Shown here: positions 11,459-18,641 of the stretch, one piece after another
How positions within the stretch are numbered: position 1 is the stretch's first letter
Layout: every line of letters begins with the position of its first letter
NCBI GenBank assembly: GCA_016840405.1
Contig: JAEOSK010000001.1
Coordinates: forward strand, 40,952 to 104,951
DNA: 64,000 bases
Direction of reading: 5' to 3'
Origin: Candidatus Hermodarchaeum yapensis
GTDB lineage: Archaea; Asgardarchaeota; Hermodarchaeia; Hermodarchaeales; Hermodarchaeaceae
Notes under the pieces: model-generated
The model's database searches: none
Seen by the model: only the letters and a program-made list of their open reading frames with translations
Told to the model about the DNA's origin: nothing
Position numbers and translations under genes: made by a program

Positions 11459-13099
11459 TCATACAGTGTTTAGAATTGGAGTAAAGCGAATTTTTAGTTG
11501 CTTCCGCTCTTTTTTCAATATGACAGTTTTCCGCCAATTGGTATCATCACTTAATGGGTAATCAAGTCTAAAATGCGATCCTCGACTTTCTCTCCGTGCT
11601 AACACTGCTTCGAAAACCAGCTTGGCTAAAATCAGCATTGATCGCATTTCAAATGCTAGTACTAGTTGAGTGGGGGTTTGAGCTTGTATTTGTGGCAGTA
11701 TAGTTCCTTTGATTTGGTCTAATCGTTCGAGACCCAGCTGAAGCCCTTGTTGATTCCGAACAGGTCGACAGAACTTGGAGAGCGTGGCCTGAACCACGGA
11801 TTTCAAATACGTTGGGGATTGTACTTGACGCTTGGTTTTTTGTAATCCATAAATGAAGTCTTTCACATTTTGTGTGCTGGTTTGATCGATTTTGATGAAG
11901 GTGTGCTGTTGGGCATAGTGACTTGCTTGTTGCCCTGCCTGTTTACCGAAGACTATAATCTCGGTGAGTGCGTTTCCACCTAATCGGTTCGCTCCATGAA
12001 CACCGCCAGTGACTTCGCCTGCAGCAAATAAGCCGTTGATGGAGGTGGCACAAGCTGTATCGATTCGTAGCCCACCCATTGTATAATGGGCGGTTGAGGC
12101 AATGCGAAGTCGTTTTCTTGTTAGAATATCTATCAATGGATGAAGTGTGTTCTTCTGGATTTCGTGTTCGTAGATGTCTTCAAAATCGGCTTGTGAGAGG
12201 GTTGTTAGGTCAAGAAGAGCGTAATCCACGTTGGACTCTTCTTTGATGAGTTCCTGTTCCATGGCGACAATTAGATTGTCACGCAGAATGGGGGTCGTCA
12301 GTAAACCGTATATGGCTAGAATAGGTTTCCCTTGAGAATTGAGTACTGGCCCCTCAGAAACGAGATGTTTTGTGGCTTCAATTAGCCAATCCAAGATGAA
12401 TATGCGAGGGATGCCTGGATCAATAAACATTGGAAGAAACTGTATAAATTCTAAATCTTGGACTTCTGCTCCACTCTCATAGGCTAACACAAGGCCATCC
12501 CCGGTGATTCGGGGTGGATTATCATTTCGGGAAAACAGGTGTGAATAGCCTCCTGTGGCCAAAATGGTTGCTTTAGCTGAGATAATAAGAAGTTCTCCTG
12601 TTACCATATCAAGGGCAATAATTCCAAGGCACCGGTTGTCTTGAACAATTAATTCAAGTGCCATGGTACGCTCAAGAAGCTTTACTCCGGCATCCACCGC
12701 AAAGTTGGCCAAGGCTTGTGTTAGGTAAATGCCTGCAGGTGGCTTTTTGGCAACTGTTGTTCTACTTTGTCCGAATAATAGGGGCACTTTGAAGGATTGC
12801 AGTTCTTGAAGCGCGGAATGCGATTCTGAAACCAATAGATGAACCAGTTGGGAGTTGTTAAGAAATTGCCCTGATTCCAATGTAGCTTGGAAATGTTGGC
12901 GTTTTGTATCAGCATCATGTGCTGTACGGAAGGTTCCCACTGCCATGGCAGTACAGTTTGCTCGACCAACCAAGCTTTTAGTAATAAGCAGAATCGTGGC
13001 ATTTTGTCTACGTGCTTCAATTGCGGCGCGTAATCCTGCTCCACCAGAACCAATAATCAAGACATCCGCGGAATACTCCTTCACACTACCCTCTTCCAA
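11459..13099 (-). CDS. FAD-dependent flavoprotein of the fumarate reductase/succinate dehydrogenase/L-aspartate oxidase family
   Basis: N-term VLIIGSGGAGLRAA dinucleotide fold, HYTMGGL, C-term RESRGSHFRLDYP; no adjacent Fe-S subunit. Confidence 0.65.
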   Translation of the reverse strand: MEEGSVKEYSADVLIIGSGGAGLRAAIEARRQNATILLITKSLVGRANCTAMAVGTFRTAHDADTKRQHFQATLESGQFLNNSQLVHLLVSESHSALQELQSFKVPLLFGQSRTTVAKKPPAGIYLTQALANFAVDAGVKLLERTMALELIVQDNRCLGIIALDMVTGELLIISAKATILATGGYSHLFSRNDNPPRITGDGLVLAYESGAEVQDLEFIQFLPMFIDPGIPRIFILDWLIEATKHLVSEGPVLNSQGKPILAIYGLLTTPILRDNLIVAMEQELIKEESNVDYALLDLTTLSQADFEDIYEHEIQKNTLHPLIDILTRKRLRIASTAHYTMGGLRIDTACATSINGLFAAGEVTGGVHGANRLGGNALTEIIVFGKQAGQQASHYAQQHTFIKIDQTSTQNVKDFIYGLQKTKRQVQSPTYLKSVVQATLSKFCRPVRNQQGLQLGLERLDQIKGTILPQIQAQTPTQLVLAFEMRSMLILAKLVFEAVLARRESRGSHFRLDYPLSDDTNWRKTVILKKERKQLKIRFTPILNTV

Positions 13100-13195: not shown

Positions 13196-13816
13196 TCACT
13201 TTTTTAATTTAACTTGATTTTTTAACGTTTCAAGGTCAGTGGCAGATGTATAAATAATTGGTTTAAAACCAAGATGTTGCCAGAAGGCTTCAGCTTCTTT
13301 GTTCCCGAGAACATACCGTAGGCTGATATGACTAACATTTTCTACTTCAAAGTACTTGCAGAGTTTGTGTATCAGCTGAGTGCCTATTCCATGTCGTCTA
13401 TAGTTTTCCAATACAAAGATCATGCCGATTATCCCCGCTTCATTAGGTTCGTATTCAATTCGTTTAAGGATCTGTCCATAGGCAAAGCCCACGATGTTAT
13501 TATCCTGTTCGGCAACCAGAACAAGACTCGTGTCGTTGGTGAGCAAGTGGCTGACATCGTGGACCAATTTCTGCCGCCCAGCCTTGGTGATTCGCCATAT
13601 AAGTGGATTAGACTGCTCTACGTGCTGTTGTAATTTTATTCGTAAATTCAAAATTTTCTCCTGATCAGCAGTTGTCGCTCTTCGAACAAGCATTCCAAAT
13701 TCTCTCCTTATTTGTCCAAACCCTTGTTGTATACATCGGTTGGTGTGGACTCTCATTTCTGTTTCTTTGGGGTGGGATTCTGCCTTTCGCACCTTCAACG
13801 TGAATCTTCTTTTCAT
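13196..13816 (-). CDS. GNAT family N-acetyltransferase
   Basis: RRHGIGTQLI acetyl-CoA binding motif. Confidence 0.7.
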   Translation of the reverse strand: MKRRFTLKVRKAESHPKETEMRVHTNRCIQQGFGQIRREFGMLVRRATTADQEKILNLRIKLQQHVEQSNPLIWRITKAGRQKLVHDVSHLLTNDTSLVLVAEQDNNIVGFAYGQILKRIEYEPNEAGIIGMIFVLENYRRHGIGTQLIHKLCKYFEVENVSHISLRYVLGNKEAEAFWQHLGFKPIIYTSATDLETLKNQVKLKK

Positions 13817-15297
13817 ACATCTTCTATCCCCTCAATTCGCGCTAGAGTCCATCTTCCCTTATCTGTCAGATCATAATATTGTCTTTTGGATTTTCGATAG
13901 GTTTGAACGGAGCGTGTTCGTGTGATAAGACCAGTGCGTATCAGCTCGTTAAGGTGTTGATACACACTTGATACTGAAACCTTGACGCCTGTTTCTGCAA
14001 TTAGTGTCTTCCAAATAGCATAGCCATATGATTCATTTCTTTGGAGAATCTTAAGGATGTGGAGTTTAGTTCCGCCCAATTTTGTTGTATACTTTCGTTT
14101 CTCAACGCGACCAAGAAGATGTTCTATATTGGTATGGCCTTTTGCAATGGTTTGAGCAATTTCTGGGTATTTTAATCCCATCCCAGTAATTACACAGATG
14201 ATTTTATCTCCTGTGTCAATTGAACCTTCTCGAAGTATTTGATGTAAAGCTGCAATAGTTGCAGCTGATGCGGGTTCAGCAAAAACACCTTCTAAACTAG
14301 CTAATGAACTGACGGCATCCAAAATTGCACTATCTGAAACTGAAACAGTAAAGCCCTCCGATTCACGAATTGCATCTAAAGCAAGTTTTCCACAAGACGG
14401 GTTTTTCATTCCAATATCTATAGCTATCGTCGATGCCTTGGTTGATGGTTCAACGGATTTACTGCCCTTTTGAAAGGCAGTAACAATGGGGGCACATCCT
14501 TTTGCTTGTACGCCGATGAGTTTTGGTGGTTCCTTTTCCATCCATCCGAGCAATTGTAATTCTTTGATTGCTTTCCAAATCATTGAAAGATGACCACCAT
14601 TTCCCATGGGCACAAGAATCCAGTCTGGGGGAATCCAATCGAGTTGTTCACAAATCTCATAGCCTGTGGTTTTCACACCCTCAAGAAAGTAAGGGCTATG
14701 ACCAATTATTGTGTGTGCATTCGGGGCTCTTTCTATCGTTCGTGCTTCTCCCTCCTCGCGGTCTTTCACTATTTCTAATTCTGGTTGATAAGCGATTATT
14801 TGGTAGAGTTTGCCAATGTCGACTCTTTGTGGCACAAACACATGACTTTTCATTCCTGCTCTAGCAGCATAAGCAACTACCGAGGCTGCAAGGTTGCCTG
14901 ATGAGCCACATGAAACGGCTTTGAAACCAAGTTCTTTTGCTTTTGATATTTCAACACTTGTTCCGCGATCAATGAAAGCCCCTGTAGGATTGGTGGTTTC
15001 ATCCTTTAGGTAGAGCTGTCGTAAACCCAGTTTTTGGGCGAGGCGGTCGCATTCATGCAGAAATGTTCCTCCCTCTCCTAGAGAAACAATGTTCCGCCGA
15101 TCCTGTACTGGAAGCAGTTCAAAATACTTCCAAACACCTGGTTCTCTGTCAGCTAATGATGAAACATCAATCTGATTATGGATTGCTTCAAGATCATAAA
15201 CAACCTCGAACAAACCACCACATTGAGGGCACCCATGTATTGGAGGCGACGGGCGTTCCGTTTCGTAGGCGCATTCTGAACATCGGAGCTTTGACAT
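13813..15297 (-). CDS. Threonine-synthase-like PLP-fold domain (N-terminal Zn ribbon) lacking the PLP-lysine, fused to C-terminal PadR-type winged-helix DNA-binding domain
   Basis: CSEC...CPQCGG ribbon; YLKDETTNPTGAFIDRG where canonical SFKDRG lysine is Ile (codon ATT at 14971-14973 on minus strand); C-term LHILKILQRNESYGYAIWK...VYQHLNELIRTGLI = PadR HTH. Confidence 0.75.
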   Translation of the reverse strand: MSKLRCSECAYETERPSPPIHGCPQCGGLFEVVYDLEAIHNQIDVSSLADREPGVWKYFELLPVQDRRNIVSLGEGGTFLHECDRLAQKLGLRQLYLKDETTNPTGAFIDRGTSVEISKAKELGFKAVSCGSSGNLAASVVAYAARAGMKSHVFVPQRVDIGKLYQIIAYQPELEIVKDREEGEARTIERAPNAHTIIGHSPYFLEGVKTTGYEICEQLDWIPPDWILVPMGNGGHLSMIWKAIKELQLLGWMEKEPPKLIGVQAKGCAPIVTAFQKGSKSVEPSTKASTIAIDIGMKNPSCGKLALDAIRESEGFTVSVSDSAILDAVSSLASLEGVFAEPASAATIAALHQILREGSIDTGDKIICVITGMGLKYPEIAQTIAKGHTNIEHLLGRVEKRKYTTKLGGTKLHILKILQRNESYGYAIWKTLIAETGVKVSVSSVYQHLNELIRTGLITRTRSVQTYRKSKRQYYDLTDKGRWTLARIEGIEDV

Positions 15298-15324
15298 TGC
15301 AACTAATATTCTATTTGTTGCCTA

Positions 15325-15346
15325 TATATAAGTAATTACTTATATA
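15325..15346. promoter_or_regulatory. perfect 22-bp palindrome TATATAAGTAATTACTTATATA in divergent promoter region; candidate PadR operator and/or bidirectional TATA elements
   Basis: read directly; lies between starts at 15297 (-) and 15386 (+). Confidence 0.4.
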
Positions 15347-15385
15347 ATCCCTTTTTCTTTCTCAATTTTGAAGAGGTGGTCTTAA

Positions 15386-16018
15386 TTGACTGCGATACAT
15401 CTCAATTCATTATTCAATAAAAAAATCAAACTTCAACAAACCAGGGTTTTTTCTTCGACTTCGATTTTTGGTGTTAACAATCCTGTTTTTTCTCGTCCAT
15501 CCGTGTTTTTAGCACTCACTGCAATTTTCACAGCTCTGACGACGGTTACGACGCTTCTGATAGTTATCCCTTTCCCTGCAACCTCTGGGTACTTCAATCT
15601 AGGTGATTCAATGGTAATGATTAGTGGACTACTTTTGGGTCCACTGGGAGGGTTCATTGCAGGTGGAATGGGGTCCGCTCTTGCTGATATGGTTGGATAT
15701 CCTCATTTTGCTCCAATTACGTTCCTTGTCAAAGGATGTGAAGGATTGGTTGTGGGCCTCGTTACCCAGCAAAATCAAACTTCGTCTCGAATTTATTTCA
15801 GGGATATTCTCGGGTTACTTTTGGGTGCCTTCATCATGTTACTTGGGTATTTCATTGCAGAAGCTCTCCTTTTTGGTTTGGAGGCTGCCCTTCTGGAATT
15901 AGTCTGGGTCAACTCGATACAAATTACATTTGGAATTATTGTCGCCCTTCTTATTGGGTCTGTCACACGGAGATATGTGGCTTCAAATCTGATTTCTCAA
16001 CTGGATAGGGTAAAATAA
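15386..16018 (+). CDS. ECF-transporter S-component-like small membrane protein (true start probably internal)
   Basis: 6 TM, NLGDSMVMISGLLLGPLGGFIAGGMGSALAD motif typical of S components; stop overlaps rSAM start (TAATG). Confidence 0.45.
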   Translation: MTAIHLNSLFNKKIKLQQTRVFSSTSIFGVNNPVFSRPSVFLALTAIFTALTTVTTLLIVIPFPATSGYFNLGDSMVMISGLLLGPLGGFIAGGMGSALADMVGYPHFAPITFLVKGCEGLVVGLVTQQNQTSSRIYFRDILGLLLGAFIMLLGYFIAEALLFGLEAALLELVWVNSIQITFGIIVALLIGSVTRRYVASNLISQLDRVK

Positions 16019-17037
16019 TGCAGATCACCAGCGTAGATTTTCTAATCACTTTTCGATGCAATGCAAGTTGTAAGCATTGTGGTTACAGAGCAGGACCTTC
16101 CAATCACGGTTATATGAAAGTCGATGACGCAAAAAAGTGGTTATCTACACTAGCTTCAGCTCACCCACTTCAATCAATTACTATTCACGGAGGAGAACCG
16201 CTCCTCTTTTTTCCAAATTATTGTTTAGAGAGGATACTTCGATATGCCACAGAGTTGAACATTCCTAAACGAGGGATTATTACTAATGGATTTTGGGCAA
16301 CAGACAAGGAAACTGCCCGGCGAAAGCTTACGAAACTTAAATCCTGTGGGCTTACGAATATCACATTTAGTGTAGATGGATTTCATCAAGAACACATTCC
16401 AATCGAAACTGTTCGAATTTGTATAGAAGAAGCAGTTGCCTTGGGCTTTACAAAAGTTGGAATACTAAGCCATTATCTTATTTCCCCCAAGGCGGAGAAT
16501 ATCTATAACAAATTAACAAATCAGGCATTAGCCAAAATTGAAGATATTGATGGAATTCAAATTGCACGGTATAAAACTAGCCTATACGGACGAGCTGCAG
16601 AGACATTAGCTGAATTTATGGAAAAAGATTCAAAACTGCCTTCAGGGCCTTGTCGGCTTTCTTATTGGCTTGGTAGTGAAATTCAAAATCCTAAAGCCAT
16701 CGAAATTGACTTTGATGGGCATGTTACGTTATGTCCGGGTATTTGCATTGGGAATCTAAAAACTCAACCACTAACCGACGTATTAAGAGACTATGTTCCT
16801 CACAAGCATCCGATTCTGAGTATTCTCGCTCGTGATGGACCTATGGGGTTAGCCAAAGTAGTTGATGATTTAAAAATTTACTATGATCACCGGTTTGTCG
16901 ATGAATGCCATTTGTGCTATGAAATGCGGCGGCTTCTCCAAAGACACTTTCCACTACGCCTTGCCCCCTCCTCTTGCTATTTACCCGCAACTTCGAGACA
17001 GACTATGCCAATTCCATTTCTTTCAAGATGTTTATGA
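16018..17037 (+). CDS. radical SAM enzyme with C-terminal SPASM-like Cys-rich domain
   Basis: CNASCKHCGY (CxxxCxxC), later CRLSY...CPGICIGN...CHLCYE. Confidence 0.7.
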   Translation: MQITSVDFLITFRCNASCKHCGYRAGPSNHGYMKVDDAKKWLSTLASAHPLQSITIHGGEPLLFFPNYCLERILRYATELNIPKRGIITNGFWATDKETARRKLTKLKSCGLTNITFSVDGFHQEHIPIETVRICIEEAVALGFTKVGILSHYLISPKAENIYNKLTNQALAKIEDIDGIQIARYKTSLYGRAAETLAEFMEKDSKLPSGPCRLSYWLGSEIQNPKAIEIDFDGHVTLCPGICIGNLKTQPLTDVLRDYVPHKHPILSILARDGPMGLAKVVDDLKIYYDHRFVDECHLCYEMRRLLQRHFPLRLAPSSCYLPATSRQTMPIPFLSRCL

Positions 17038-17049
17038 CCAGAGTGGTGT

Positions 17050-17589
17050 ATGTCAGTGAAAGAAAGTCCACAGAGTAAACAGATGACTGCAATAAGAATT
17101 CGGAGTGCAAATGAAAACGATATACCTGGGATTCATATGGTAATCAGTAAAGGGTTTTGGGGTCTTCAAAGGCGAGGATATTCAAAGAAAGCAATTGAAG
17201 CAGCAATTCCCTCTCGAAGTGAAATTCAACAACGTTTACTTTTGCCTAAAACGGTTGTATTTGTAGCTGCAAATGAAGACCAAATTATTGGAACAGTTAC
17301 TGGAAGTGAGAAATTCGAACACTTTCATGTCCAGTCCTTTGCGGTTGATCCTAGGTTTCAAGGGCACCGAGTTGGGTATAGTCTTATGACTGAACTTGAA
17401 AAAAGCGCTCGACAATTTAATTGTAAGAAATTATTTGTGCAAACCGCCTGGGCAATGTTTGAAGCCATTAAACTGTATCTGAAGTTAGATTTTGAACTGG
17501 AGGGATATCATCCAAGACATTTTTTTGGAGAAGTATTGCTGTCGTTTGGCAAAATTCTGAAACCATCAAAAAATGGTAATCGAGTGTGA
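17050..17589 (+). CDS. GNAT family N-acetyltransferase
   Basis: FQGHRVGYSLM motif. Confidence 0.65.
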   Translation: MSVKESPQSKQMTAIRIRSANENDIPGIHMVISKGFWGLQRRGYSKKAIEAAIPSRSEIQQRLLLPKTVVFVAANEDQIIGTVTGSEKFEHFHVQSFAVDPRFQGHRVGYSLMTELEKSARQFNCKKLFVQTAWAMFEAIKLYLKLDFELEGYHPRHFFGEVLLSFGKILKPSKNGNRV

Positions 17590-17684
17590 TTATGTTCCTG
17601 CCAAGGTCCTTCTGTGTTGAATATGGAATTGGGGCATCAGCCAATGGACATTTTTTCACATAGTCACCAAAGGGAGATTTACTA

Positions 17685-18641
17685 TTGATCAACTCATCTA
17701 TCAAATACTATCTAAGCCTAATAATTGCATCAATTTGCTTTGGGAGCATTGCTGTTTTTGCGTTCTATCTGACCCTATTTGGTGTTTCTTCAACACAGCA
17801 GACATTCTTTCGAATACTCTTTACGGCATTTTACCTGTTTTGTGGTCTAGGTGTTTGGCTTCGCTTTCATGATATTTCCATTAGACCCGAGCACGTAACA
17901 CTTTTTGTCCTCTATGGACTGATAGGGGTGTGTGCACCCCTTTTTACTTACATAACTGCTATTGCAATAGGTACGCCAGTTATCGTTGCAGTTTCGCTAG
18001 CCTATCTTTATCCTGCTATTACACTTATCCTTGCCAGAATTTTTCTAAATGAATTGTTCAATTTGAAACGAATCATCGCTGTAGTTTGTTCTATAACTGG
18101 GGCAATCGTTATTTCAACACCAATAATTTCTGAATATTTCCCGATACCTGTTTTTGGCTTCATTCTATCAGCATTAACTGCTTTGTTTTTAGCCTGTTTC
18201 ATGGTGGTGGGACGAAAATTAGGTGGATATGAGGATTATAACCCACTTGTCACTACATTCTGGGGATATTTATTTGGGTCTTTATGGATGGGTGTTATTC
18301 TACTCGGTCTGCAGTTTCTAATCATTGATCCTCGTATTGTTGGGTTCCAATTGATATTACCAATACCTGTTTGGGTTTTACTTCTCGGGTTTGCCTTAAT
18401 TGCCACAGCAATTCCCTACACATTAACTAATTATGGAATGAAGCGAATTGATGCTTCCGTAACCTCAATCATTCTACTACTTGACCCACTAAGTAGTGTT
18501 ATCTTTGGAATCCTCTTGATGGGTCAAGTAGTGGTATTTTGGCAACTCAGTGGTGCATCGTTAATTCTTATTGCTACCATACTAACTGGCCTTGAACAAA
18601 AATCATCTAAAAAGAACAGTATAAGGCAAAAGGGGAGCTAA
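17685..18641 (+). CDS. EamA/DMT-superfamily transporter (10 TM)
   Basis: two 5-TM halves, hydrophobic profile. Confidence 0.65.
   Translation: MINSSIKYYLSLIIASICFGSIAVFAFYLTLFGVSSTQQTFFRILFTAFYLFCGLGVWLRFHDISIRPEHVTLFVLYGLIGVCAPLFTYITAIAIGTPVIVAVSLAYLYPAITLILARIFLNELFNLKRIIAVVCSITGAIVISTPIISEYFPIPVFGFILSALTALFLACFMVVGRKLGGYEDYNPLVTTFWGYLFGSLWMGVILLGLQFLIIDPRIVGFQLILPIPVWVLLLGFALIATAIPYTLTNYGMKRIDASVTSIILLLDPLSSVIFGILLMGQVVVFWQLSGASLILIATILTGLEQKSSKKNSIRQKGS

Follow-up and report, generated by a model that had tools for sequence, protein, structure and literature searches.

A candidate vitamin B6-sensing regulator of Asgard and TACK archaea that joins a threonine synthase-like domain to a PadR winged helix

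Among archaeal regulators of vitamin supply, ThiR, which carries a ThiN-like domain, and RbkR, in which riboflavin kinase is joined to a winged helix, are derived from enzymes. Classical PadR proteins are small (approximately 110–180 residues) and bind their ligands at the dimer interface, while proteins of the MocR family are sensors that keep the PLP lysine, in contrast with the ThrC-PadR regulator described here, from which this residue has been lost. In bacteria, both synthesis and uptake of vitamin B6 are regulated via PdxR, a member of the MocR family, and PdxR regulons contain pdxST, pdxU and genes for RimI-type acetyltransferases (PMC5320631). The MocR family is reported to be lacking in Archaea (PMC5320631), and as late as 2025 a preprint referred to control of the PdxS/PdxT pathway as poorly characterized (10.1101/2025.11.07.685452). 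Searches of the literature gave no B6 counterpart of ThiR and RbkR and no earlier account of a regulator of the ThrC-PadR or fold-type II PLP kind, in agreement with a preliminary description of this DNA, which knew of no ThrC-PadR one-component regulator.

The present locus, which lies in an analyzed stretch of 64 kb (the window), encodes a protein that is labeled 'threonine synthase' in public records and is referred to below as the regulator. Compared with threonine synthase of the type that bears a Zn ribbon (ThrC; EC 4.2.3.1; NF006050/PRK08197), the regulator was 36–41% identical to solved relatives (2zsj, 6cgq and 1uim), with target-normalized TM-scores of 0.83–0.86. Features of this type that the regulator also has are its N-terminal Zn ribbon, the loop for the phosphate of PLP, the Asn to O3' and the Thr to N1. 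It differed from ThrC in the presence of Ile for the lysine, Phe for the phosphate Arg, a PadR domain of approximately 90 residues and neighboring B6 genes. The winged helix and terminal helix were those of the PadR family (PadR of Bacillus subtilis, LmrR), and the candidate target is a palindrome, which suits a dimer, but the winged helix, unlike that of classical PadR proteins, was at the C-terminus of a 400-residue enzyme-derived sensor. Likeness to PdxR and other MocR proteins was evident in the combination of a PLP-enzyme-derived sensor with a winged helix, in the divergence of the regulator gene from pdxST or pdxU with a shared intergenic region, and in the content of the candidate regulon, which matched that of PdxR for pdxST, pdxU and a RimI-type acetyltransferase (PMC5320631). 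In contrast with MocR and PdxR, which are of fold type I with an N-terminal winged helix of the GntR type, the regulator was of fold type II with a PadR domain in reversed domain order; no GntR or aminotransferase domain was matched in a Pfam search of the protein, which instead gave PALP, of fold type II, and then PadR. The regulator would thus be comparable to bacterial PdxR in function but not homologous to it, and it falls outside the MocR/PdxR family. With ThiR and RbkR it would share the principle of a cofactor or vitamin enzyme fold acting as a one-component sensor over synthesis and uptake of that vitamin, although it would differ from both in vitamin, sensor fold and DNA-binding domain.

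Domain architecture of the regulator

The regulator gene was identified on the minus strand at 13813..15297 (stop codon 13813..13815) as a single open reading frame of 494 codons, and its assignment was based on this reading frame, on Pfam matches to PALP and PadR, on an AF2 model (pLDDT 88) and on Foldseek. The N-terminal Zn ribbon (residues 1–35; 15193..15297, minus strand) was of the form CxxC...CxxC, with C6, C9, C23 and C26 invariant in 76 homologues, and was common to the regulator and the closest unfused ThrCs, the alignment to NF006050 beginning at residue 2. The fold-type II PLP domain (residues 71–372; 14182..15087, minus strand) was delimited by Pfam (PF00291, E=1.7e-66) and by alignments, and retained both the YLKDETTNPTG motif and the Gly-rich loop PMGNGGH. 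Two threonine synthase models of NCBIfam matched above their cutoffs (NF006050, 337.8 bits vs 303; TIGR00260, 201 bits vs 167), the best PDB sequence match was 2zsj (E=4.4e-65), and the top Foldseek matches of the model were all ThrC structures.

The C-terminal PadR-type winged helix-turn-helix and its following helix (residues 409–494; 13816..14073, minus strand) were matched by PF03551 over residues 414–486 (E=3.5e-14, 53 bits vs a cutoff of 27), in an alignment that spanned positions 1–74 of the 75 in the model, and weak PDB matches of this domain to the PadR proteins 3l7w, 4ejo and 5dym were noted. The predicted elements in the AF2 model (helices 409–420, 425–436 and 442–454, strands 458–465 and 471–477, helix 479–493) gave a topology in which three helices are followed by a beta-hairpin wing and then by the terminal helix; pLDDT values were 86–94 over residues 411–480. 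The preliminary description, which had read this frame as a complete threonine synthase fold with a Zn ribbon, the two motifs and some 90 C-terminal residues of the PadR type, was borne out in each of these respects, including the matches to PF00291 and PF03551 that it had proposed as a check. A frameshift or assembly join, raised there as another origin of the fusion, was ruled out by the single uninterrupted reading frame and by the presence of the same architecture in over 180 independent homologues that belong to many phyla.

Schiff-base lysine, cofactor pocket and substrate site

In alignments with the solved ThrCs 2zsj, 6cgq and 1uim, Ile109 of the regulator was placed opposite the Schiff-base lysine (K61 of Thermus ThrC), the sequence nptgAFIDRG corresponding to nptgSFKDRG. 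The codon for this residue (14971..14973, minus strand) is ATT on the coding strand, two substitutions away from AAR. Both this codon and the exchange of Lys for Ile were as first reported from the sequence, and the question raised at that time of whether the exchange is conserved was answered from a survey of 268 relatives, 184 with the winged helix and 84 unfused. The lysine was kept by only 2 of the 184 fused proteins, P0166 from Bathyarchaeota and P0202 from Lokiarchaeota, as opposed to 80 of the 84 unfused ones, and the remaining fused proteins, where aligned, had I, L, V, M, R, T, N, A, S or F at this position. Loss of the lysine is therefore tightly coupled to fusion with the winged helix across the family. 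The fused proteins formed essentially one clade when compared by the PLP domain alone, and at least 134 genomes at the species level, from Asgard and TACK archaea, were found to encode members of the ThrC-PadR family, so that the search for the same fusion in other archaea, also suggested at the outset, was positive. A second subfamily of approximately 470 residues had K or R at the lysine position and occurred in different gene contexts.

The possibility that another lysine has taken over the PLP site, which had been named as an objection to the pseudoenzyme reading, was rejected. The conserved lysines of the regulator (K98, K163, K209 and K376) were likewise conserved in genuine ThrCs, and none was specific to the family. 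Residues in contact with the cofactor in ThrC were present, namely F108 (the stacking Phe), N135 (the Asn to O3'), G232-N-G234-G-H (with G232-x-G234 as the phosphate loop) and T371 (the Thr to N1), and each was at least 96% conserved in fused relatives. Retention of these contacts is a feature of the aligned sequences from which binding of PLP by the regulator is predicted. The equivalents of N154, S155 and R160 of Thermus ThrC, reported by Omi et al. (2003) to contact the phosphate group of O-phosphohomoserine, were I, G and F204 in the regulator. Among 178 fused proteins, position 204 was Phe in 135, Leu in 16, Tyr in 9 and Ile in 6, while Arg was present at this position in 41 of 80 unfused ThrCs. 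Several pocket residues beside the cofactor (L136, F204, H236, M239, D294 and C302) were strongly conserved in the family and unlike those of real ThrCs. Because both the Schiff-base lysine and the Arg for the substrate phosphate have been lost, binding of PLP would be non-covalent only and catalysis of the ThrC reaction would not be expected.

Divergent transporter gene, shared promoter and candidate regulon

The gene divergent from that of the regulator (15386..16018, plus strand) encodes an ECF-type S component (PF07155, E=1.2e-36) that resembles PdxU and HmpT and is a candidate transporter of B6 vitamers. An S component of this family was divergent from the regulator gene in 64 of the 79 species-level loci with upstream flank. 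PF07155 includes PdxU and PdxU2 (PMC9997740), and the closest known relatives of the archaeal protein were HmpT/PdxU2 (4hzu chain S) and PdxU, from the same Pfam family. The sole PDB sequence match was 4hzu_S, HmpT (E=4.5e-18), with no other match even at E<=10, and NCBIfam gave only weak matches below threshold (TIGR04002, FolT family, RibU) and no call of substrate. HmpT binds pyridoxamine, although it was first predicted and annotated as a transporter of hydroxymethylpyrimidine (HMP), a thiamine precursor, and has six conserved pocket residues, E41, H84, Q87, Y120, N140 and Q143 (PMC4860826). Three of these six (Y120, N140 and Q143) were identical in the archaeal S component and the position of E41 was occupied by D or E, whereas H84 was replaced by K, Q87 by E and, in addition, S136 by E, each replacement being near-invariant in the archaeal proteins, as were their pocket residues in general. 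Since only three of the six residues are identical, a pyridine or pyrimidine of another kind may be the substrate.

The promoter region common to the regulator and the divergent gene contained a conserved element of the form ATATATAA-N7-CCTATATATAGG at 15321..15347 of the window. In this element the candidate operator core (15321..15332), 23 nt upstream of the regulator ATG, reads CTTATATATAGG in gene orientation (the same stretch is also written CCTATATATAAG) and has the palindromic family consensus (G)CCTATATATAGG(C), while the TATA-like box (15340..15347), with the family consensus ATATATAA, reads TTATATAA in gene orientation. Positions of the element were near-invariant across 64 loci from many phyla, conservation in the TATA-like box was 0.91–0.98 per position, and the spacing between box and core was fixed at 7 nt. 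From the geometry of archaeal promoters, TTATATAA is probably the TATA box shared by the two divergent promoters. A conserved palindrome of 12–14 bp beside the gene is compatible, as judged from sequence, with binding of a dimeric PadR domain to an inverted repeat. The palindrome at 15325..15346 that had been proposed earlier as a binding site was present and overlapped this candidate regulatory element. The window itself gave a single match, with no further copies of the operator in its 64 kb.

A blind scan of metagenomes with the element returned 102 contigs, of which approximately 10 looked like chance matches, the operator being AT-rich and TATA-like. The regulator gene was beside the motif on 84 of these contigs, an S component was present on 83 and pdxS on 5, and on two of these last (L173 and L189) the operator was carried by pdxS-pdxT with no regulator gene nearby. 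Association with genes for PLP synthase was also noted among the species-level loci, as pdxS-pdxT adjoined the regulator gene in 6 of the 79 with upstream flank; neither an S component nor pdxS-pdxT was found in 9 of the 79. Independent loci in which pdxS-pdxT was either the direct partner or a target with the operator numbered 11. Adjacency of regulator and B6 genes spanned both Asgard and TACK archaea, while in the 64-kb window no pdxS was found.

Downstream of the S component gene, on the plus strand, were genes for a radical SAM protein (16018..17037; Pfam and NCBIfam), the start of which overlaps the stop of the S component gene, a RimI-like GNAT acetyltransferase (17050..17589; Pfam and NCBIfam) and an EamA-family transporter (17685..18641; Pfam), the last gene of the probable operon. 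The first two are probable members of the regulon. Homologues of the radical SAM gene were directly preceded by extra copies of the operator in two loci (L035 and L077). A copy was noted upstream of a GNAT homologue in another (L025), a GNAT homologue followed pdxS-pdxT behind the operator in L105, and GNAT homologues were located between the S component and the regulator in approximately 9 loci of Thorarchaeota. A GNAT-EamA pair was divergent in L005 and L009, and EamA genes were present in L024 and L035. In 33 loci the S component was followed by a protein of 431 residues, which matched nothing in Pfam, NCBIfam or the PDB sequences.

Other neighbors were considered as partners and rejected. 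The GNAT gene downstream of the regulator (13196..13816) had no counterpart in other loci, and the gene for an FAD protein (11459..13099) recurred only in Hodarchaeota and in one Thor/Bathy locus, from which it appears to reflect lineage synteny. Desulfoferrodoxin, rubrerythrin and other recurring neighbors (approximately 30 loci) were without the operator and were treated in the same way.

Proposed function, alternatives and significance

The reading that we favor, with a probability of roughly 70%, is that the protein is a one-component transcription factor that senses vitamin B6, as PLP or another B6 vitamer, regulates its own gene and controls uptake and synthesis of the vitamin. The earlier suggestion of a ligand-sensing regulator rather than an enzyme is supported by the coupling of lysine loss to fusion and by the conserved candidate operator and conserved predicted regulon of the family. 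In the proposed mechanism, the ThrC-derived fold-type II domain would bind PLP (or PMP or PNP) non-covalently and the PadR winged helix would act as a dimer, probably on the palindrome 7 nt downstream of the TATA-like box. A regulator bound to the operator would obstruct its own promoter, since this sequence separates the TATA box from the start site, and would in addition govern the divergent operon for B6 supply, consisting here of the genes for the S component, radical SAM protein, GNAT and EamA transporter and in other lineages of pdxS-pdxT. From promoter geometry and the precedents of PadR and PdxR, we favor a model in which the apo protein would be bound to DNA, activating the supply genes and repressing itself, and would be released upon binding of PLP.

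Of the ligands suggested in the preliminary description, PLP fared better than threonine and homoserine phosphate. Because the Arg for the substrate phosphate has been lost and the regulated genes appear to be B6 genes rather than threonine genes, PLP or another B6 vitamer is the more likely effector. Descent of the PLP domain from ThrC and the presence in the window operon of GNAT and EamA genes, the latter from a family that includes exporters of amino acids and metabolites, would agree with a sensor that binds O-phosphohomoserine, homoserine or threonine and regulates amino-acid transport or efflux. Replacement of Thermus R160 by Phe204 (F, L, Y or I in the family) together with that of N154 and S155, the occurrence of EamA in only a few loci, and conserved partners that are the PdxU/HmpT-like S component and pdxS-pdxT instead of thr genes make such a sensor improbable. 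Somewhat less improbable, yet still unlikely, is a dual sensor in the manner of GabR (PMC5320631), in which non-covalently bound PLP would react with an amino compound to form an external aldimine and thereby integrate B6 and amino-acid status. The aldehyde of PLP would be free to react when no internal aldimine is formed, and the six conserved pocket residues that depart from ThrC (L136 to C302, above) suggest a specific second ligand; however, PLP alone is the simplest effector for the B6-supply genes seen in the regulon, and no pathway for the breakdown or synthesis of an amino compound was conserved beside the regulator gene.

The history of HmpT as a presumed HMP transporter (PMC4860826) raises the matter of thiamine, as the S component might import HMP and the regulator control the supply of thiamine precursors. 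One copy of the motif was indeed located 21 nt upstream of thi4 (L144), and thiC, beside an S component, was 313 nt from an operator (L168), but these were single contigs among matches that include chance ones. The PLP fold of the sensor and the 11 independent loci with pdxS-pdxT as partner or operator-bearing target render this reading very improbable. We give least credence, and very little of it, to continued enzymatic activity, either of a bifunctional ThrC-repressor or of a lyase acting through another residue, with the fused domain as an accessory only. The well-conserved remainder of the fold and the two fused relatives that keep the lysine would fit such an enzyme, but the variety of residues that replace lysine in the regulator and its other aligned fused relatives, the lack of a replacement lysine specific to the family and the disappearance of the substrate-phosphate site all speak against it.

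The B6-sensing reading provides a concrete candidate for an archaeal B6 regulator, with a putative operator sequence and a first regulon, and the latter suggests a candidate for a B6 transporter of archaea as well as uncharacterized enzymes linked with B6. Hundreds of database entries for 'threonine synthase' are probably misannotated and can distort metabolic reconstructions of Asgard archaea. A wider and much more speculative view, which we regard as possible but doubtful, is that the family acts as a master switch of B6 metabolism in Asgard and TACK archaea and that the uncharacterized genes found in company with its operator, those for the radical SAM protein, RimI-like GNAT, EamA transporter and 431-residue protein, would form an oxygen-independent route of B6 salvage or repair, filling the gap left in anaerobes by the O2-dependent PNP/PMP oxidase; occupancy by PLP would then be read out reversibly because the pocket is without lysine. 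The family also presents a case of an enzyme turned into a probable sensor, in which the cofactor pocket has outlasted the catalytic lysine and the substrate site, and the disappearance of these is linked with the gain of a DNA-binding domain. If the B6-sensing reading is true, the regulator would be a second, independent PLP-fold transcription factor, built from fold type II and PadR as opposed to fold type I and GntR.

Predicted regulator protein and its ThrC-like pocket

The regulator gene (window 13813..15297, minus strand) consisted of a single uninterrupted ORF of 494 aa in which Pfam identified a full-length PALP domain (PF00291; residues 71-372, E=1.7e-66) and a full-length PadR domain (PF03551; residues 414-486, 53 bits against a cutoff of 27). 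Threonine synthase (ThrC) models of NCBIfam scored above their cutoffs, ThrC structures ranked first in Foldseek, and the AlphaFold2 model (pLDDT 88, pTM 0.77) contained the ThrC fold, a low-confidence linker (residues ~373-408) and a C-terminus of three helices, a beta-hairpin and a terminal helix, typical of the PadR module. In alignments to the ThrCs 2zsj, 6cgq and 1uim, the last of which recovered K61, R160 and T317 of Thermus ThrC by numbering, Ile109 (codon ATT, window 14971..14973) was exactly opposite the Schiff-base lysine (nptgAFIDRG compared with nptgSFKDRG), and all four Zn-ribbon cysteines were invariant among homologues. These results bear out the complete ThrC fold, N-terminal Zn ribbon, C-terminal winged helix and K to I replacement at the PLP site recognized in the preliminary description. 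The 442-position NCBIfam equivalog NF004170 / PRK05638, named "threonine synthase", aligned with query residues 4-486, winged helix included; fused proteins thus seem to underlie this curated model, despite its enzyme name.

When 178 fused proteins without the lysine were compared column by column with 80 unfused ThrCs, a dead catalytic site and a preserved cofactor site were apparent in the former. Retained cofactor contacts were F108 (stacking Phe), N135 (Asn to O3'), the G232-x-G234 phosphate loop and T371 (Thr to N1), and E206/G207, K209/T210 and E341/P342 were also kept. The position of Thermus R160, which reportedly binds the phosphate of O-phosphohomoserine (Omi et al. 2003), was Arg in 41 of the 80 unfused ThrCs as opposed to F (135 proteins), L, Y or I in the 178 fused ones; the equivalents of Thermus N154 and S155 were I and G in the query, and new family-specific residues (L136, H236, M239, D294 and C302) surrounded the site. 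With cofactor contacts kept and substrate-site residues replaced, the pocket looks, at the level of sequence, to be built for holding the cofactor and not for binding or converting the ThrC substrate. Because the lysine is absent, any PLP binding would necessarily be non-covalent and reversible, which would suit a sensor.

The best 120 matches in a search of 5.8 billion proteins all contained PF00291 and PF03551, were 50-94% identical to the query and came from Hod-, Thor-, Loki-, Odin-, Sif- and Bathyarchaeia, mostly under the name "threonine synthase" where the source gave one. NPTG[AS]F[IL]DR was present in 116 of these 120 proteins and K in none. More distant relatives were reached by exhaustive HMMER searching among 1.84 billion cluster representatives, and 268 collected proteins were scored with a C-terminal-domain HMM, the lysine column being taken from a joint alignment. 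K occupied the Schiff-base position in 2 of 184 proteins with the winged helix and in 80 of 84 without it, the four exceptions among the latter being fragments or aberrant proteins. The non-K fused proteins had I (120) or L (33), else V, R, M, T, N, A, F or S; four were gapped. A rough, unbootstrapped neighbour-joining tree built from the PLP domain only united 67 of 68 fused proteins, including the two that retained K, in one clade. The fusion thus seems to have had a single origin, and across the family loss of the lysine goes together with it.

The same fusion was found in other Asgard and archaeal genomes, the lysine being lost in nearly all 184 proteins. Relatives were also noted in 134 genomes on a scan of one genome per species, performed with a pattern that had [IL] at the lysine position and was blind to K-bearing forms. 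These included Asgard (Thor, Hod, Hermod, Loki/Prometh, Sif, Borr, Baldr and Njord) and TACK lineages (Bathyarchaeia, Methanomethylicia, Aigarchaeota-like Terraquivivens, Brockarchaeota, Nitrososphaerota, Culexarchaeia and Thermoprotei). ThrC-PadR proteins are a large, old family and not an artefact. A second fused subfamily of ~470 aa (P0152, P0155, P0166, P0202, P0214 and relatives; loci L190-L193), with Arg or Lys at the Schiff-base position (NPT[NSQ]SF[RK]DR), occurred in Odin-, Baldr-, Loki- and Bathyarchaeia in gene contexts that differed from those of the main family, and its function may differ. In its Loki locus, a further PF07155 S component was encoded 0.6 kb downstream and a PfkB-family kinase close by, and its Odin/Baldr locus adjoined MCM and hydrogenase genes.

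Vitamin B6 genes and the shared promoter element

ORFs within 5 kb of the regulator gene were clustered for 82 non-redundant loci. The dominant partner was an ECF-type S component (PF07155; 15386..16018, plus strand, in the window) on the opposite strand immediately upstream, at a median gap of 77 bp, with a GNAT gene in between in some Thorarchaeota. Even at E<=10, its sole match in a PDB sequence search was 4hzu chain S (E=4.5e-18), which is HmpT/PdxU2 of Lactobacillus brevis. HmpT carries pyridoxamine according to mass spectrometry and simulation (PMC4860826), and PdxU and PdxU2/HmpT, both PF07155, are among only three characterised prokaryotic B6 transporters in a 2023 survey (PMC9997740). 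HmpT pocket residues Y120, N140 and Q143 were identical in the archaeal S component, E41 was D or E, and H84, Q87 and S136 were replaced by K, E and E; these positions were near-invariant among 65 archaeal orthologues. The archaeal pocket is therefore related but not identical to that of HmpT, and a B6 vitamer is the candidate substrate. In six loci that lacked the S component, pdxS-pdxT adjoined the regulator instead, divergently in Borrarchaeum (L053) and Bathyarchaeota (L063, L066, L067 and L068) and, in Baldrarchaeum (L074), downstream in the same orientation; Pfam confirmed PdxS (PF01680, 321-327 bits) and PdxT (PF01174). A gene for B6 uptake or synthesis adjoined the regulator in 70 of 79 loci (89%) with an upstream flank.

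The intergenic regions contained a common element, ATATATAA-N7-CCTATATATAGG, of fixed spacing and per-position conservation of 0.9-1.0 (64 unique sequences, many phyla), which usually ended 3-13 nt ahead of the regulator ATG and was flanked by unconserved sequence save an A-rich BRE-like stretch upstream of the first box. The window copy is TTATATAA-GTAATTA-CTTATATATAGG (coding strand, 15347 down to 15321), so that the 22-bp palindrome of the preliminary description (15325..15346) proved to be the Hodarchaeal form of this element; pdxS-linked loci had the variant TCATATATGA-N7-CCCATATATGG. Where the S-component gene was 2.3 kb from the regulator (L055), the element stayed with the S component.

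In an independent test, a metagenome collection was scanned with the 20 specified bases of the element alone. Among the 102 contigs found, a ThrC-like gene was beside the motif on the expected side in 84, an S component on the other side in 83 and both in 78, these counts being based on wider distance limits than the initial classification; pdxS was present in 5. About 10 contigs, of phage-like or bacterial context, look like chance, as would be anticipated from the AT-rich search pattern. On two contigs without a regulator gene (L173 and L189, the latter reaching 12 kb past the element), the element was 6-25 bp upstream of pdxS-pdxT, and operons behind it elsewhere were pdxS-pdxT-GNAT (L105; GNAT homologous to window 17050..17589) and pdxS-pdxT-S component (L136). 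Within the regulator loci themselves, extra exact copies preceded homologues of the window radical SAM and GNAT genes (L025, L035 and L077). Both protein and element are tied to pdxS-pdxT and to the PdxU/HmpT-like transporter.

The PadR domain, as a dimer, would bind the palindrome (G)CCTATATATAGG(C), with PLP or another B6 vitamer as putative effector. In loci such as L062 and L085, where 3-4 nt separated the palindrome from the ATG, the ATATATAA box was centred ~27 nt before this codon, as is usual for TATA box and start in archaeal leaderless mRNAs; the box thus probably acts as TATA box for the regulator's own promoter. The palindrome would then lie between TATA box and start site, a repressing position, and this geometry supports the predicted binding. 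For the divergent gene, the palindrome would occupy the BRE-distal side of the box, a common site of activation by archaeal factors. Ligand-induced release is usual for PadR proteins. In bacteria, apo-PdxR is reported to occupy the shared region, where it activates pdxST and keeps its own gene repressed until removed by PLP (PMC5320631). Placement of the palindrome at both promoters suggests a similar logic, in which apo regulator would activate B6 genes and repress itself and PLP would release it. Alternatively, holo protein may compete with TBP at the TATA-like core and repress both genes.

Other genes near the regulator

The window S-component gene formed one tight operon with genes at 16018..18641 (plus strand) for a radical SAM protein (weakly YydG-like), a RimI-like GNAT and an EamA transporter, homologues of which (L025, L035, L077 and L105) had their own operator copy or were within a pdxS-pdxT operon. 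RimI-type acetyltransferases also occur in bacterial PdxR regulons (PMC5320631). In 33 loci, mostly of Thorarchaeota and Lokiarchaeota, the S-component gene was followed directly, on the same strand, by a gene (e.g., L013:5311-6606, minus strand, and L006:5893-7170) for a ~430-aa protein without matches in Pfam, NCBIfam or PDB sequence searches; this gene is probably co-transcribed behind the operator, and its product is thus a candidate B6-linked enzyme.

An SdhA/NadB-like FAD flavoprotein gene (window 11459..13099, minus strand) was near the regulator in Hodarchaeal loci, and a Thor/Bathy-type locus (L005:9578-12134) encoded such a flavoprotein with a 4Fe-4S protein; this proximity may be only synteny. 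In 30 loci, a desulfoferrodoxin (superoxide reductase) gene followed the regulator on the same strand after ~90 bp (for instance L006:9591-9965 and L041:2323-2715), and in 28 rubrerythrin was encoded ~2 kb upstream. Given a 2025 preprint in which pdxS-pdxT of an Asgard lineage is reported to be under oxygen-dependent control (10.1101/2025.11.07.685452), a possible link between B6 and oxygen stress is perhaps worth attention. The GNAT ORF downstream of the regulator (window 13196..13816, minus strand), listed as 206 aa and overlapping the regulator stop, was called as 163 aa in 94%-identical contigs, with its start shifted 117 bp downstream; the 206-aa version probably reflects overextension in ORF calling, and the gene was not conserved beside the regulator in other lineages.

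Ligand and relationship to known regulators

The preliminary description proposed a ligand-sensing regulator responding to an amino acid or PLP adduct. Lysine loss, fusion and operator uphold the regulatory part, and we put at about 0.9 the probability that the protein regulates the divergent operon by binding DNA. A threonine-type ligand fared otherwise, as a sensor of the threonine pathway conflicts with loss of the phosphate site and with a regulon of B6 genes; the proposal is thereby refined to vitamin B6, with which the system is probably concerned, PLP itself being the somewhat favoured effector. A GabR-like dual sensor of PLP and an amino compound is possible and would account for the strongly conserved non-cofactor residues of the pocket.

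A role in thiamine or HMP metabolism may be considered from the early annotation of HmpT and from two single contigs, one with the exact operator pattern (L144, motif 1250-1276) 21 nt upstream of thi4 (thiazole synthase) and the other with operator (L168, motif 816-842), S component and, 313 nt away, thiC. These may reflect a link to thiamine or chance, and eleven pdxS-linked loci oppose such a role. Residual enzyme activity is unlikely for the window protein itself but may persist in fused P0166 and P0202, which keep K, and perhaps in the ~470-aa subfamily (Arg or Lys at this position), whose contexts differ.

The regulator is homologous to ThrC but lacks two features that define ThrC function, and thus ought not to be annotated as threonine synthase. 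It belongs to the PadR family through its DNA-binding domain and conceptually joins ThiR and RbkR, archaeal vitamin regulators derived from enzymes. It would work like PdxR/MocR proteins but differs from them in PLP fold, winged-helix family and domain order, and so is not a member of that group, which is reportedly absent from Archaea (PMC5320631). No paper describing a ThrC-PadR regulator was found in literature searches. ThrC-PadR proteins are an undescribed, widespread family of archaeal transcription factors, for which an operator is now defined and a first regulon available.
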